DNA from: Eledone cirrhosa
Taxonomy: Eukaryota
Direction of reading: 5' to 3'
DNA: 64,000 nt
NCBI GenBank assembly: GCA_964016885.1
Contig: CAXHJY010000862.1
Coordinates: 1-64,000, forward strand
In this document: piece after piece, positions 1 to 49,100 of the stretch
How positions within the stretch are numbered: position 1 is the first letter of the stretch
Layout: each line of letters begins with the position of its first letter
The notes under the pieces: generated by a model
Seen by the model: only the letters and a program-made list of their open reading frames with translations
The model's database searches: none
What the model was told of the DNA's origin: nothing
Made by a program: the position numbers and the translations under genes

Positions 1-178
1 ATATATATATATATATATATATATATATATATATATATATATATATATATATATATATATGTATATATATATATATATATATATAAATGTATATATATAT
101 ATATATATATATATATATATATATATATATATGTATATATATATATATATATATATAAATGTATATATATATATATAT
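1..178. repeat. (TA)n microsatellite (one of dozens of TA/CA/GAT/TAA tracts across the window)
   Basis: Directly visible; these tracts generate the many YIYI/CVCV pseudo-ORFs. Confidence 0.98.
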
Positions 179-535
179 AAAGAAAAAGGGATGAAATCGA
201 AAATGCAACTGAAGTCTTATTTTTTAAAAAAATATATATATTTATTTGGTTCCTTTACCGTTTTCGCAGTTCTTCTGCTTTTCAAAAGGTGAGTTGAGAT
301 GGAGGGTCTGTGGTTTTTCTCACATGTGAGAAAAACCACAGACCCTCCATCTCAACTCACCTTTTGAAAAGCAGAAGAACTGCGAAACCGGTAAAGGAAC
401 CAAATAAATATATATATTTTTTTAAAAAATAAGACTTCAGTTGCAATTTCGATTTCATCCCTTTTTCTTTATACTTCCACTCGTGTAGGACACCTCGGTT
501 ATTTTTCATTTTGTAAAAAAAACCTCACTTTCTAA
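176..535. mobile_element. Loop-less ~150-bp-arm palindrome; inverted pair of PLE pseudo-LTR-like ends with a degenerate hammerhead
   Basis: Arms ~176-324 and 325-473 centred on CACATGTG. The + arm reads CCTT-TTGAAAA-GCAG aagaa CTGC-GAAA-CCGG-TA-AAGG (360-397), an HHR topology with a mutated core. Both ends abut (TA)n. Confidence 0.7.
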
Positions 536-43183: not shown

Positions 43184-46100
43184 ATGGCTTTTCGCCGTTT
43201 ATCTTCCTCTCTTGGCAGAAGTTTACTAAAATGTTCTCGTCACCATCAATGTCTACCTTTACGAATGTCTTCTCATTTCCCTATCGACGATTCACTTTTT
43301 GGTCTAACAGACGAACAAAAGCAAGTAAGTCGTATTTTGTAGAGTTTTGTTCATTAATTGTCCACTTCGTTTCTTTCTCCTTCAAAAAAATATAGAAATG
43401 TTATTATTAAGCCTGTAAGGTCAGTTTCGGTCAAATAAGTTCCTTCCACCCGTGACTATCCTGTCAGAGTTTGTCTTCAAATGATGTATATATCTAAGGT
43501 GTATTTTTTGTTTAAAGACGTGCGTGCGTGCGTGTTTGTCTCTCTCTTTGTGTATGTGTGAGAGAAAGTGTGTAATTTGAGGGTTAATTGACTGCTGTTT
43601 CTAGCAGAATAATCGACTATGTAGAGTTTTTCCTTCAAAAGTTTATAACACAGCTGGTACTGTTGGGAGTTTTTGTGCTGGCGCGGGTACCGTACGAGAG
43701 TAATTTTTTGTTATTCAACTTGGAACTAAACTGTCGTAATATTAAAATATATAAAATATAATTGTTATTGTGGACCTGAGTTGGAAGCGGAGAACGTGTC
43801 ATAATATGTGGCCTCCCAGATGAGGGTTCTACCCCCTGTGGAACTGAGTTCGTATCCCTGTCAGGATACTCAGACAAATTCATTTAATTTCACTTCAGCT
43901 TCACCAACACCCTTAATTAACTCGTTTAAGATTATATATTCTGCCAGGAAGCGCGACATCGTTAGATAGTACCAGCAATGGAAAGACCAATGGAAACATT
44001 GTTTCCTCGGTCCAATTTGACGAGTTCCACCGCACTCTGTAAGTGAATGAGGTCTGGGACTTTGACGATTGATCGATAACAAAAGATTATATAACCATAA
44101 CAATCTACCATTTTATTTTCACATGGCCTTGGACTCGGTCGAAAGCTTTCAAAACTTCGTAATTAAAAAAAAAAACATATAACCATGTTTCGTGTTTGGT
44201 GTTATTGGTATTATTGTTGTTATTGGTGTTATTGTTGTGCAAATACGTACGTACATAGTTGCACCCACACACAAACAGACATATCATCATCATCATTTCA
44301 CGTCCGTTCTTTCCACACTAGCATGGGTTAGACGGGTTGTCCTGTTGTGGGCAGTGTCCGGTCGGCTGACCTTGTCTTGCTCATACGGGAACTGATTCTG
44401 GCTTGATTTCTACAGCTGGATGCCCTTCCTAACACCAACCTCATTTACAGTGAGTGGTGGGTGCTTTTTTGCCGTGGCACCTCCACGACCACTTCGCAGT
44501 GGAATGATATGGACCCCAGTCCTATCATCTCATTTCTACAGCTGAGTAAACTGGAGCAATGTGAAATAAAGTGTCTTACTTGTATTTATCTAGTTGATGT
44601 CTAAATTCCAATGAAAGAATCTTGTTTCTATGTTATAAACCGACTCTCTCTCTCTCTCTCTCTCTCTCTCCATCAATATATAAAATAACATACATACGTA
44701 AATATATATATTTACATATTTGTGTGTGTATGTGTGTGTCTATATATATATATCGATCGACTTTCGTCAAATCGGACCGAGGCAACAATGTTTTCCGTTG
44801 GTCTTTCCAATTGCTAATACTATCTATCGGTCGCAACTCCAGGTAGAAGGAGCAACGTGAAATAAAGTGTCATAATCAAGGACATAATGCATCGCCCGGT
44901 CCAAGAATCGAACTCACAACTCAAGTTTGTGAATCAAATTCTCTAACCACTCAGCCACACCCCTTTGTGTATATATATACATACACATATTTGTGTATAT
45001 ATAAACATGCATATTCACATATATATATATATATATATATGTAAGTGTGTATATATATATATATATATATATATATATCATCATCGTCACCACCATCACT
45101 ATCGTCATCAAAATCACTATCATCATCACCATCAACATCATCACCAACTTCACCAGCATCATTATCATCATCATCACCATCACCACCACCATCATCATCA
45201 CCATCACCATCACCAACACTACCACCACCATCATCATCAGCAGCAGCAGTTAAGAATATTTTATTTATTTTCTCATTGGTTTAGCTTCGAGAATCTGTCT
45301 TCCAGTTTGTACAGAAGGAACTTGCTCCAAAGGCTACTGAAATTGATCGCACCAATAACTTCTCTGAACTACGGGTAAGTTGCCTAGGCCCCAGGCTGTC
45401 TAGTTCCCATATTGCCTAGTTACCATGTTGGCTAGTCCTATAGTTACCTAATGACCAAGTGTCTTAGTCTCCAAGTTCCCAAGTTGATCAATCCCCTAAT
45501 TACCACATTACATAGTTGCTTAAGGCCCAAGTTGCTGAACGCCCAAGTTGCTTAACACCCACATTGATTAATGCCCACATTGTGTAAGGCCAAAATTACT
45601 TAATACCCAAGTTGATCACTCCCAAAGTTTCTTGTGCCCAAATTGCCTAGTCCCCAAGTTGCCCAGCCCTATAGTTTCCTACTGCCTAAGTTGTCTAGAA
45701 CCCATTATTCCCTTTTCAACTACTACTACTACTACACTTGTCTCTCCCTTCCTTTCCCAGAGCTAGCTTGATTTGTTCCATCTCCATCCAAGTCTGTCCA
45801 ACTCACTCGCCTCTTCTCCTCATGTCATTCTTATTATATCTACCCATAACCTTGTCCTTACACTCTTCATTATTTTCAAAAATATTTGATAATCTGAGGC
45901 AGTGTCTTTCATTAGAAATATGGTAATGAAAGGGTTAATGACATAGACAGTGTCTTTCATTAGAAATATGGTAATGAAAGGGTTAACAGGATTATACTTT
46001 TTGTTTCCACTATACTTCAGGAATTCTGGTTAAAATGTGGTGAAATGGGTTTACTTGGAATCACAGCTCCCAGTAAGTATATATTTCTCAATACAGTCTC

Positions 46101-49100
46101 TTTCCAATAGAGCTAATATAAGGTTAGAAAACTACTATTACTACTGCCACTGCTGCTACTATTGTTGTTGTTGCTAGTGTGACCTGGGACTAAACAACAA
46201 CAATGAATGATGATGATTAGAATATTGTCTTTGTATTACATCAACTGAAGATTGTGTCTAGACATATTTTAAAGATAAATCACAATTAAGCTATATATAT
46301 ATATATATATATATATATATATATATATATATATATATATATATACAGGATGTCCCCCAAAAATGTATACACACTTTGATTACCTGTACAGGCAATATTT
46401 ATTAGAATGCTGTTGAAGTGTATATACATTTTTGGGACACACACCCTGTATGTGTATATTGTACAATGTGCACTTTAAAGTATATAATGTGTATATATAC
46501 TATATATATATTCTATATATGTGCATTGTAAAGTATATAATGTGTATTAAAAGTATATGTATATATGTATATTATATATTATTATATGTATATATATATA
46601 TATAAGGACGGTGGATTGGCAGTATCGGTAGAGTGTCGGATGCCATTCTGAGTTCAAATCCTGCCGAGGTTAACTTTGCCTTTCATCCTTACAGGGTAGA
46701 TAAAATAAAGTACCAGTAATACACTGGGTAATTGTGCCAAAAGTAGAAACAATTATATATATATATGCATTGTAAAATGTATAATGTGTATATGTACATT
46801 ATATATGTATATTATACATTATCTGTATATATTATACATTATCTGTATATATATATGTACTGGGTAATTGCTGGCCTTGTGCCAAAAAGTAGAAACAATT
46901 ATCTGTATATATATATGCATTGAAAAGTGTATATATATATACACATATGATGTGTCTAATGATATGTGCAGGTGAGGCTAAGGGTACAGACGTGACTTTG
47001 TGTTTAAAATTGCTGCAGTTGTTAGACTATCAGCTGTGATACCTTGCAGTAACTGTTCTGTCTCTGTAAATTCTGATTTCAAATTCCTCCTCCTGTTACC
47101 AGAAAGATGCATTGGGTGGTGGCTGGTGGTTCTCCTTATTAAAACCTTCAAGATACCTTCTTTGAGATGGTATAGGAGATCAACAAACCTATACTACTGT
47201 AAACTGTAACAACAACAACTACAACATTGACCTTATATGGTTTTAAATGAATATTTTGAGCATATTACTCCAGTTCAGGTTTAAAATAATATCTCTGATC
47301 ACTTTATATCAACTAGCCTTCTCTCTAATTTTTTCTATTTATTTATTTATTCAATTTAAACGTCCGTATAGAGCTATCCATGACAGACTAGGGGAAGTAC
47401 TTCTTACAGTTGAGAAACAAAAAAACAAGATATACAGAGATAAGTGAAAATAAAAATTAAAATAAAATAAAATGAAAATTTGAATAGGGAAGCCAATGGG
47501 AGGCAAAATAAGCATAAAAAAAGATAAAGAAAAATGGGAAACAAGGGACGCTGTAAAGTAACTAGGAGGTCAATAGCCCCTCTTTACTACTGTAAGGGGG
47601 CTAGGAGGTCAGTAGTCCAACATCAGTACTGACTCGGTCTATGTAGACCTGTCCAACTGTTGCTAGCTGGGATAGCAGACATTAACCCTTTAGCATTTAC
47701 GTTACTCTATATTTACTATTGTATTTTTGTGGTAAAGGCTTTATCTCACATAATTATCTCACATAATCTATGAGATTTTGATGTTATTTATTTTGAGAAC
47801 AATACATTAACATCAGTAAGAGCAGCCGGTTTGAACTGAAGGAGGTGAGGGAATTCTGGATAGATATGGCCAGTTTAAATGCTAAACGGTTAAATGGTTA
47901 ATGATGATGATGATGATTAACATTGCGATTCTATTTTCCAGGTGAGTTTGGAGGTTCTGATGGTGGTTACCTGGATCATTGTCTTGTCATGGAAGAGATG
48001 TCTCGAGCATGTGGTGCTATAGCTCTTAGTTATGGAGCACATTCTAATCTTTGTGTCAATCAACTTGTACGCAATGGAACACAAGAACAGAAAGAGAAAT
48101 ATCTACCAAAGGTAATAATCTCTTTCTTTCCTCTCTCTCTCTCTCTTTCTCCCCCACCCCCTCTCTCTCTCGTTCAGTTGATTTTTTTAGGGTGTTTCAA
48201 TAGATTTTCCTTATTTATGTATCATCATTATCATCACCATTTAACATCCATTTTTCCATGCTAGCACAGGTTATATATATATATGTATATTATATATATA
48301 TATATATATATATATATAGGAACGAGTAGGACCCCGACGGCTGAGCTCAAGCCGTTTTGACGGCTAATTCAGTCCAGAATTAGCCGTCAAAACGGCTTGA
48401 GCTCAGCCGTCGGGGTCCTACTCATTCCTATTACCCACTCTACTACCCTAAGTATTGAGTACTTTGGTGCGTTATGGTCCATCTGGTTCCTTACCACATT
48501 TCCTTCATTATATATATATATCCAGGGAGTGTAACTTGGAGTTACTGTAGGTTCACCCGGGTGAGCACTCGATGTTTAGGTTCACTTCAGTGTTGAGGTG
48601 TAGAGCTATACAGAGTGTATTATAGTGAAAAGATAACATGGGTGATTGGTTATTCCTTCATTACATTTATTGGCAGGTGATGTGCGTTTCGCCACTGATC
48701 AGCTCAAGGTTCGATCTGTATCGATCTTACCCGACTCTGTAATCTGCAGGTCGACGGACCTTGAGCTGATCAGTGGCGAACCACGCGTCACCAACCAATC
48801 AATGTAATGAAGGAGTAACCAATCGTCCTTGTTATATTTTCACTATATATATGTATGTAAGTGTGTGTATATATATGTGTGCGTGTGTGTGTGTGTATGT
48901 GTGTGTATATGTGTGTGTGTGTATATATATATGTGTGTGTGTACATGTATGTGTATATACAGCTAATTTTGTAATGTAATCTGTTCCAGTTGATAACAGG
49001 TGAACATATGGGAGCTTTAGCCATGAGTGAACCAGGAAGTGGCTCAGACGTGGTCTCCATGAAACTTAAAGCAACATTTAAAGGTAACATATTAGGATTA

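Follow-up and report, generated by a model that had tools for sequence, protein, structure and literature searches.

The locus described here raises the question of how Penelope-like elements (PLEs), the closest relatives of telomerase, come to lie as outward-facing inverted pairs in (TA)n repeats. The window is the whole stretch of DNA that was analysed, 64 kb from Eledone cirrhosa (GCA_964016885.1, contig CAXHJY010000862.1, positions 1-64,000, forward strand). A wider survey covered 1.2 Mb sampled across the 3-Gb genome (locus labels Lnnn), and the evidence base for the insertion model is entirely genomic. PMC8557442 lists the origin of PLE inverted repeats and of their one-sided tail among the open questions, and the cited parts of PMC11167929 do not settle it either. 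The fold-backs are probably single insertions of endonuclease-bearing (EN+) PLEs, mostly of the Hydra clade, twin-primed on one RNA and joined at their inner ends.

Inverted pairs in the window

Outer ends were classed as S, a fixed short end, or L, a fixed end further downstream past a tail. All eight fold-backs of the original prediction were recovered at about the same coordinates, each as a minus-then-plus (outward-facing) pair of one family, and the two that it had left unassigned belong to the same PLE class. Its statement that the 3' ends of the arms mostly run into (TA)n was borne out at both outer ends of 7/8 fold-backs, but not at the left end of the 41922 pair, which has (TA)n on the right side only. 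Three further pairs were found (23018-23240, 28181-28299 and 40070-40190). The combination S+L was present in 10/11 same-family window pairs, the L arm extending 63-105 nt past S; the 41922 pair is the exception. The mapped features are as follows (strand given for single arms and elements).

178-534: family G pair, S arm on the left, L arm with a tail of 63 nt on the right; both arms carry a hammerhead with U3-A8 core; CCHH-type and non-Hydra by its motifs
4968-5221: family A2 pair, S+L; both arms cut within hammerhead stem II
19258-22432 (-): family B element, Hydra-clade by motifs, 5'-truncated, with 3' UTR; L end into (TA)n
20889-22430 (-): family B ORF fragment in this element (RT C-half, linker, GIY-YIG)
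19387-19435 (-): family B hammerhead of this element
23018-23240: family I pair, L+S; absent from the original prediction
25998-26161 (+): family A solo arm, S end; perfect-core hammerhead 26058-26107
26183-26647: family A pair, L+S, with templated filler where the arms join; hammerheads 26333-26383 (-) and 26538-26588 (+)
28181-28299: family J pair, non-overlapping, tail-only L arm and S arm; absent from the original prediction
28458-28524 (-): D-like solo arm; perfect-core hammerhead 28473-28518
35199-40009: cross-family head-to-head join of two Hydra-type families, J and D, with RT/EN fragments
35199-36960 (-): family J part of this join, EN fragment, S end
36956-40009 (+): family D part of this join, frameshifted RT+EN, cut directly past the hammerhead GAAA
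40070-40190: family J pair, non-overlapping, S arm and tail-only L arm; found in 4/4 paralogs
40251-40698: family B pair, L+S; 177 nt identical between arms; hammerheads 40389-40438 (-) and 40598-40647 (+)
41922-42263: family A pair, L+L; internal deletions; left end outside (TA)n
42320-42959: family A2 pair, S+L; hammerheads 42375-42413 (-) and 42771-42809 (+)
48318-48506: family F pair, S+L, with a tail of 78 nt; the hammerhead fold, of variant core, is represented in the arms by its 3' half only
48522-48848: family Hh pair, L+S, 105-nt tail, mapped to one family; no clear hammerhead core found on reading the arms

Hammerhead motifs

A stem-checked descriptor detected nine complete hammerheads in the window (eight perfect cores, one with one mismatch) and 0-1 match in five block shuffles of it. 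The 1.2-Mb sample contained 129, compared to 3 and 5 after shuffling. This agrees with the proposal that the PLE pseudo-LTRs carry minimal type-I hammerheads, the features of which (CUGANGA and GAAA core, stems I and II, palindromic loop 3) are present. The count of more than 15 motifs in at least five families given by the original prediction was reached under loose counting (about 16 whole or near-whole folds in six families, taking in a copy with a damaged stem I, a copy cut after GAAA and variant-core families), but not with the nine strict motifs. Cores are canonical in families B and D and variant in G (UUGAAAA) and J (CAGAAGA). No hammerhead was among the Rfam matches listed (150 of 201), monomer folds were modestly stable (z -2.2 to +0.9), and the 5' ends of the arms did not cluster at predicted hammerhead cut sites. 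The position 3' of an RT+GIY-YIG ORF was confirmed for three families (B, J and D), but in full copies this same block also lies directly 5' of the ATG.

Protein and clade assignment

The family B unit consists of hammerhead, S, a 90-nt tail, L, 47 nt, ATG, a 742-aa RT+GIY-YIG ORF and a 3' UTR. Intact 742-aa ORFs at L051 and L052 contain YRDD and VVYNC...YVGST, motifs found by eye; searches of Pfam and PDB with the PLE protein gave no significant match, and the RT and GIY-YIG domain call therefore rests on motifs. Family B has RWR and SDKT at the positions of the Hydra-clade RWK and DKG->DKT, with RW[KR] in 74/79 and DK[TS] in 79/79 long homologs. Its linker reads CNCRNKSNC (CxCX5C), and it has CDLCIE (CxxC before E) and N...CRH (CxH after N) and no CCHH. 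The linker and endonuclease Cys/His pattern of the J and D fragments matches that of family B, and hammerheads and (TA)n insertion, both Hydra traits, were found as well. By these motifs, families B, J and D are assigned to the Hydra clade, as first suggested. This fit does not extend to families C and G, whose frameshifted fragments with CxxC linker, YIGET/YIGQT and paired Cys/His mark them clearly, as judged from motifs, as non-Hydra, CCHH-type endonucleases, possibly of the Neptune/Nematis type (C-terminal GIY-YIG with CX2-5CxxC linker and CCHH); yet both follow the same end rule.

The S+L rule and the target site

In the 1.2-Mb sample, all 72 same-family pairs in which both ends could be classed were S+L, with no SS and no LL, compared to an expectation of 0.50 for independent ends; S and L ends were similarly frequent (164 and 181). 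Families not seeded from sample palindromes contributed 51 of these pairs, and tail length ranged from 26 to 142 nt. Ends were also complementary in 17/17 distant same-family partners, in 5/5 short hidden arms and in 6/6 ORF-bearing family B inserts with both ends classed. The orientation of direct same-family neighbours, for which randomness would have spoken against the original prediction, was 78 head-to-head and 0 tail-to-tail. (TA)n was present at both ends of 59/72 pairs versus a background of 8% per site, and 178/372 terminal fragments had neither an annotated neighbour nor (TA)n immediately on their 5' side. Exceptions to a one-RNA origin were the L+L pair, three cross-family joins and L143, whose arms are subfamily-discordant (7/9 differences shared with other copies).

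The arms are joined head-to-head at truncated 5' ends as originally described, but these ends are often clustered and not random. The longer arm ends 22-40 nt past a TATA-like box in 15/17 A, 30/36 F and 4/8 G pairs, which fits run-off at the 5' end of the RNA. The boxes were chosen after the clusters had been seen, some loci of families A and F were selected by search, and TATA-like words occur 1-4 times per 250-450 nt. No such box was found in families C, D and J, and the family F cluster falls inside hammerhead stem II. The Drosophila Penelope promoter is described as TATA-less (PMC2377424). Many Hydra-type families have a small RCTC...GAGY hairpin 3-11 nt past the start site; a hairpin follows S in 13/32 families (0.3 expected), and family B has a second one after L.

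Model of insertion

Since nearly every pair is S+L and both arms match one source, one RNA was likely copied from both strands. The endonuclease would nick both strands of the (TA)n target, and each target 3' end would prime at S or L, at a site set by the RCTC...GAGY hairpin and aided by 2-5 nt of AU complementarity between RNA and target. With priming in the 5' pseudo-LTR, the 5' end of the RNA would be only 60-260 nt away, and both cDNAs would run off it to yield short ORF-less stubs; priming in the 3' pseudo-LTR would yield arms carrying the ORF. An L-primed copy would displace the S-primed copy, giving overlapping arms and a palindrome, or stop early and leave a tail-only arm and no palindrome. 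End joining by microhomology would seal the middle, and the hammerhead would be a passenger whose cleavage is not required for insertion. The original prediction that the two sides of a break both act as primers is also the most probable model here, but the arms are not equivalent, one being S and the other L.

Twin priming may further be the programmed, normal integration of EN+ PLEs, with one dimer, one RNA and two hairpin-marked starts, one per strand, so that inverted pseudo-LTR and one-sided tail arise in one step; priming in the 5' pseudo-LTR would then mass-produce about 10^5 ORF-less 'strong-stop' palindromes, which repeat pipelines would file as SINEs or MITEs. We give this extension slightly less than an even chance.

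Arm source, nesting and joints

In 43 pairs, partner arms differed at 194/5945 sites, 36 of these (0.6% of sites) being variants that other copies share, compared to 1335/15483 sites and 633 shared variants (4.1%) in non-partner arms, a similarity that gene conversion could also produce. A common source is also explained if the L-primed cDNA extends to the end of the RNA, folds back and serves as its own template, a staggered endonuclease cut leaving the tail on one side and central deletions following later. Self-priming on antisense RNA was proposed in PMC3846280, and staggered endonuclease hairpin resolution leaving a one-sided tail was suggested in PMC8557442. This route, which we consider unlikely, accounts without strand displacement for S+L and for near-equal 5' ends (38/72), which are expected from it as well as from twin priming. 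Junctions lie frequently within self-complementary words, and joints changed after insertion in paralogs. When overlapping pairs were split by arm identity, the S arm was the longer one in 1/26 of those with at least 97% and in 4/28 of the older ones; the scarcity of such non-nested pairs among the youngest fits some later deletion.

Several geometries argue for twin priming on one RNA instead. Non-mirror geometry was found in 20/72 pairs (S arm longer 5' in 11, tail-only L arm in 9), more than the 8/72 with a longer L arm, although loss of the palindrome centre after insertion could make nested arms appear non-nested. Where ORF-truncated family B inserts have an inverted arm next to them, that arm fails to mirror the truncation point in 14/14 and is a pseudo-LTR ending at S or L in 11; self-copying would need multi-kilobase one-sided deletions in every case, yet palindromes of 0.7-2.6 kb persist (L087, L057). 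Self-copying cannot produce L039, where the inverted piece ends at reference position 562 and the main arm begins at 559, an L1-type signature, and is difficult to reconcile with L055, where the inverted arm is tailed and the main arm lacks a tail throughout. The ends of tail-only arms, by contrast, speak against twin priming, being spread from +1 to +67 with no pile-up at S. Joints show 1-11 nt of microhomology or short filler.

Two RNAs of one locus could also be copied in an asymmetric dimeric particle, perhaps paired via hammerhead loop 3, which is self-complementary in 9/9 window motifs; minimal hammerheads are thought to act dimerically (PMC4209133), and the anole PLE protein is predicted to dimerise (PMC11167929). 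Strand displacement would be unnecessary and rare discordant or cross-family pairs would be permitted. However, such a particle does not by itself account for the absence of SS or LL, mixed-source pairs should exceed those seen given about 39,000 RT candidates in the genome, and tail-only arms and L039 resemble collision on one template. We regard it as improbable.

Paralogous segments and sequencing reads

The 26183, 41922 and 42320 pairs and the 40070 J pair recur in four paralogous segments (contig C2). The 40251-40698 family B pair is missing from 4/4 paralogs, and in three of them its place is taken by plain (TA)n; the single testable empty site is uninterrupted (TA)n, as had been predicted. 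The expectation that the palindromes occur in raw reads was confirmed for family B head-to-head joints, found in public contigs and raw Illumina reads, but not for the exact 26455-26464 junction, which had zero depth in 4/4 read runs. The 40514-40522 centre was spanned by none of the matches listed from public contigs and raw reads. The window pairs are very probably not assembly fold-backs. A MITE or foldback DNA transposon was rejected on the basis of the one-sided tail, the variable centre and the link to an RT ORF.

Assembly or library fold-backs, MITE-like transposons or independent adjacent (TA)n insertions are very improbable and largely refuted as explanations: the window junction was not recovered from reads and (TA)n draws numerous independent insertions (in the sample, 24 tail-to-tail neighbours are separated by TA), but arms are mutually divergent, the recurring pairs and the joints of other copies in raw reads oppose an artefact, outer ends are fixed PLE termini, and 72/72 S+L with same-source arms cannot originate from independent events.

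Abundance

The 1.2-Mb sample contained 95 same-family pairs, a rough extrapolation of which suggests about 10^5 PLE stub pairs genome-wide, and PLE fragments make up about 8% of it. An annotated PLE end adjoins only 174/1014 TA runs of at least 20 nt; PLEs therefore use microsatellites more than they explain them, which qualifies the original proposal of continuous microsatellite splitting. As natural products, the approximately 10^5 pairs predict one S and one L per target, the same RNA, promoter run-off and a start-setting hairpin. The intact 742-aa ORFs are material for assays. For annotation, short palindromes of this kind are easily misclassified or mis-assembled.

Relation to known systems

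In L1, twin priming is an occasional event in which the second site varies and the pieces do not overlap. In the present genome the two sites are fixed, overlap of the arms is usual, and twin priming would apparently be the main route. The L1 mechanism (Ostertag and Kazazian 2001) is described as two cDNAs that start on one RNA from either side of the break and meet head-to-head via microhomology (PMC2246262); L039 has the same form.

The locus had been put forward as a candidate system of its own. Its class, layout and preference for (TA)n had, however, been published before, as had an octopus Hydra family: layout, one-sided tail and (TA)n bias are covered in PMC8557442 (Craig et al. 2021), and head-to-head is given as the most frequent PLE arrangement in PMC3846280 (Arkhipova et al. 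2013). The Hydra clade of PMC8557442 comprises C-terminal EN+ PLEs, including Hydra-1_Obim of Octopus bimaculoides, and resembles the present families in the listed protein motifs, hammerheads, (TA)n target and cephalopod host. Hydra elements are generally <3 kb, a tendency in that paper and not diagnostic, whereas a long 3' UTR brings the family B unit to about 4.2 kb. As described there, the clade has few families and Hydra-1_Obim 'no pLTR', in contrast to the number of RT candidates, the order of 10^5 estimated stub pairs, the clear pseudo-LTRs and the tails of about 60-105 nt in the window families.

The canonical EN+ PLE unit is an inverted 5'-truncated copy with a one-sided tail of 30-40 bp (PMC8557442, PMC3846280, PMC2377424). 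Pseudo-LTR, adjoining inverted 5'-truncated copy and one-ended tail were found here, and the head-to-head inverted pseudo-LTR, joint palindrome and solo pseudo-LTRs are shared. The tail, described as 'often at one end', was so in 72/72 pairs here; tails are longer, arms frequently non-nested and 5' ends clustered. The PLE papers propose self-priming (PMC3846280) or endonuclease resolution (PMC8557442) and not twin priming, the model preferred here.

For PAc, a Poseidon element of Anolis, both strands were cut and extended in vitro, with two internal start sites bounding the tail, an AT-rich target and dispensable hammerhead cleavage (Frangieh et al. 2024, PMC11167929). The paired internal starts, the target and the use of both strands resemble the system described here. 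The PAc start site is reported as the same for top and bottom strands, without target homology, whereas here the sites are 60-105 nt apart, upstream of the ATG and with short AU complementarity to the target. The cited parts of that report leave the assignment of sites to strands and the inverted copy without account.

Animal non-LTR retrozymes are ORF-less, carry a type-I hammerhead and derive from PLE pseudo-LTRs (PMC7229834; bioRxiv 10.64898/2026.07.22.740005). They were rejected as an identity for the window elements, which are inverted pairs of truncated ends and not head-to-tail tandem units. Retrozyme-like tandem arrays with hammerheads were observed elsewhere in the genome, at L164 and L168.

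Inverted pairs and hammerheads in the window

All eight fold-backs named in the original prediction were found in the window. Mapped on real family copies, each consisted of an arm on the minus strand and then one on the plus strand, both from one Penelope-like element (PLE) family, joined at the 5' ends and with the 3' ends outward; the fold-backs at 48318 and 48522, previously left unassigned, were head-to-head pairs like the other six. Three additional pairs were present. The paired inserts are real and abundant, and their class and layout are already known: PMC3846280 and PMC8557442 have described head-to-head inverted pseudo-LTRs, a tail on one side and targeting of (TA)n. 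The value of the present data lies in the counted pair geometry, through which the mechanism of PLE integration becomes open to direct test.

Nine complete hammerheads were recovered from the window with a stem-checked descriptor vs 0-1 in shuffles; an earlier, stricter descriptor had given 7-8 motifs. Complete motifs thus fell short of the more than 15 predicted in at least five families, and about 16 in six families were reached when damaged copies and variant cores were counted. Family G (families are named here by letters) carried the core UUGAAAA, with a U3-A8 pair, in 16 of 18 copies, including window 178-534, and family J the core CAGAAGA in 26 of 26. Most family F copies had CUGAGAA or UUGAGAA together with a full stem III and a GUC site. 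PMC3088659 describes U3-A8 cores as variants that occur naturally and are active. Among the matches listed, an Rfam scan of the window gave only microRNA-like false matches to palindromes and microsatellites.

A short tail-to-tail inverted repeat flanking a TA run (17889-17975) belonged to a different, very common repeat and was no PLE pair. Long minisatellite arrays reading as open frames were located at 9452-11539, 13950-14761 and 24673-25343.

Element identity and structure

A search with the window ORF fragment returned 38,982 candidates in the 3.0-Gb genome, of which 150 were scored; the best named homolog came from Argonauta hians, from which an octopod host is likely. Neither Pfam nor PDB sequence searches recognised the ORF. 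Long copies encode a 742-aa ORF with the motifs RWR, DKT, MGSSDS, YRDD, CxCx5C, CxxC..E and CxH; a GIY-YIG-type motif pair is present and CCHH is absent. Judged by these motifs, the ORF matches Hydra, the clade originally proposed, whose definition is given in PMC8557442 (section 11). An Octopus bimaculoides family of this clade, with a (TA)n target, is already recorded in the supplement of that paper. Families C and G, whose endonucleases are of the CCHH type, lie outside Hydra. In full copies, the hammerhead is followed by the fixed short outer end (S), a 90-nt tail and the fixed long outer end (L); the ATG lies 47 nt past L, and the ORF is followed by a 3' UTR of about 1.6 kb and the next pseudo-LTR.

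A repeat annotation of Octopus vulgaris (PMC13282606) describes expanded PLEs and leaves 893 recent SINE families unclassified; hammerheads do not figure in its main text. As a guess, some of these SINE families could be PLE stubs.

An intronless 1689-aa ORF was located at 29905-34974 (+); Pfam gave nothing above cut-off and a weak NHL hint. Four paralogs at 98-99% lie in tandem on another contig of the same genome (C2), and about ten at 82-88% were found, many on contig C18.

Pair geometry in the genome sample

The sample of 1.2 Mb was made up of 120 stretches of 10 kb each, taken at even spacing and for the most part on the largest contigs. It contained 129 perfect-core hammerheads vs 3 and 5 in shuffles, 32 of the 129 coming from a single tandem retrozyme family. 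Of the 224 palindromes, 70 abutted (TA)n at one end and were separated from it by a tail of 25-160 nt at the opposite end; a further 12 abutted (TA)n on both sides.

The library used for annotation comprised 34 families, of which the two tandem retrozyme families were omitted from every pair count; in the final run, microsatellite-like UTR stretches were masked. The resulting 372 terminal fragments yielded 97 head-to-head pairs, 95 of them same-family. One S and one L end were combined in 72 of the 72 same-family pairs with both ends classed, of which 21 came from families seeded by such palindromes (circular) and 51 were free of this; in the remaining 23 pairs, one end lay inside the element. 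S and L ends are about equally common, so this combination would be expected in half of the pairs if the ends were independent. The rule also held for distant partners (17/17) and short hidden arms (5/5). (TA)n was present at both ends in 59 of the 72 pairs vs 8% for a random site. The orientation of neighbouring copies was non-random as predicted: tail-to-tail neighbours lacking intervening TA numbered none in the 1.2 Mb, against 78 direct head-to-head neighbours of one family. Terminal fragments without a partner (137 with an unannotated 5' side, 41 with TA there) are numerous partly because the library is incomplete.

Paralogs, empty site and reads

Window 24292-43024 corresponds to four copies, with a period near 55-58 kb, at 201.78-202.02 Mb of C2 in the same assembly (G000). 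These copies differ by several retroelement insertions and so provide a ready-made empty/filled comparison set. Older window pairs were common to all four. The family B pair at 40251-40698 was absent from all four; in three, (TA)n ran uninterrupted from one shared flank to the other, and in the fourth the run contained another pair. (TA)n at empty sites, as expected from the original prediction, was thereby seen at this one site in three paralogs. The empty runs measured 70 to about 125 nt, matching the summed filled flanks (61+21); given these lengths, (TA)n flanks made de novo by the element were not needed at this one site.

Other copies of family B were represented in public contigs and raw reads by their head-to-head joints, some of them with an L arm confined to the tail (tail-only arm), and in one run 4344 reads passed from the S end into TA. 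Head-to-head joining was thus confirmed in raw reads for these copies and not for the window joint at 26455-26464, which had zero depth in all four read runs (reads placed on 26400-26530).

In paralogs of 26462-26647, about 1.5 kb of LINE-like sequence splits the arm directly after the hammerhead GAAA; the break was present in 4/4 C2 paralogs and the sequence was read for one. At 35199-40009, two different Hydra-type families are joined head-to-head with an overlap of about 5 nt; the joint may reflect one event or two, the paralogs carrying a different 5-kb block there.

Origin of the paired arms

Partner arms differed at family-shared variants in 0.6% of sites vs 4.1% for non-partners. The two arms of a pair come from a single source, compatible with one RNA, fold-back or conversion. 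The model we favour, and regard as probable, is that both arms would arise by twin priming on one RNA molecule. Fold-back must place the S arm within the L arm, so nesting discriminates. Among the 72 pairs, the 5' ends were equal in 38 and the L arm was longer in 8; an S arm longer than its partner (11) and a tail-only L arm (9) both argue against fold-back, and 6 were undecided. Non-nested arms were rare among the youngest overlapping pairs (1/26), as later deletion would predict. ORF-bearing family B loci also spoke against fold-back: 39 were examined, of which 3 were duplicates, and 14 of the 36 distinct loci were cut inside the ORF with an adjacent inverted arm, which mirrored the cut point in 0/14. 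We consider fold-back, with endonuclease resolution and later central deletion, unlikely; the scarcity of non-nested arms in the youngest overlapping pairs speaks in its favour. Double priming on an RNA dimer would account for the rare discordant pairs and is rated slightly less likely still.

Eleven of these 14 inverted arms were S- or L-ended pseudo-LTRs. In a family B insert at another locus of the genome (L039:271-2870), the inverted piece ends at the start of the main arm, and the target was another PLE-like ORF, not (TA)n; this 5' inversion resembles L1 twin priming. In vitro work (PMC11167929) showed the tail to lie between two start sites and both strands to be extended. A literature search, from which the 2005-2006 reviews cited for the tail were missing, returned no paper with PLE twin priming or one start site per strand.

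Joints showed 1-11 nt of microhomology or short filler. Equal 5' ends clustered 22-40 nt past a TATA-like box, selected after the fact, in families A (15/17), F (30/36) and G (4/8); a box with such a cluster was absent in C, D and J. The clusters suggest putative run-off at the RNA start. Family C shows a cluster of 5' ends around position -255 relative to S, immediately upstream of AAGATGGCG, which we take to be a YY1-type motif of TATA-less promoters. Hammerhead cleavage as the origin of arm 5' ends was rejected, the cut sites being without a clear 5'-end cluster, and so was the idea that family F folds at a fixed stem-II hairpin, since pair centres vary. An RCTC...GAGY-N-C hairpin followed S in 13 of 32 families vs 0.3 expected, within 3-11 nt in 12, and family B had a second copy after L.

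Tandem arrays of 420-480 nt units with a hammerhead in each (non-LTR retrozymes) were found at two further loci, L164:279-9567 and L168:456-3366, and these families form inverted pairs too (loci L094 and L111).
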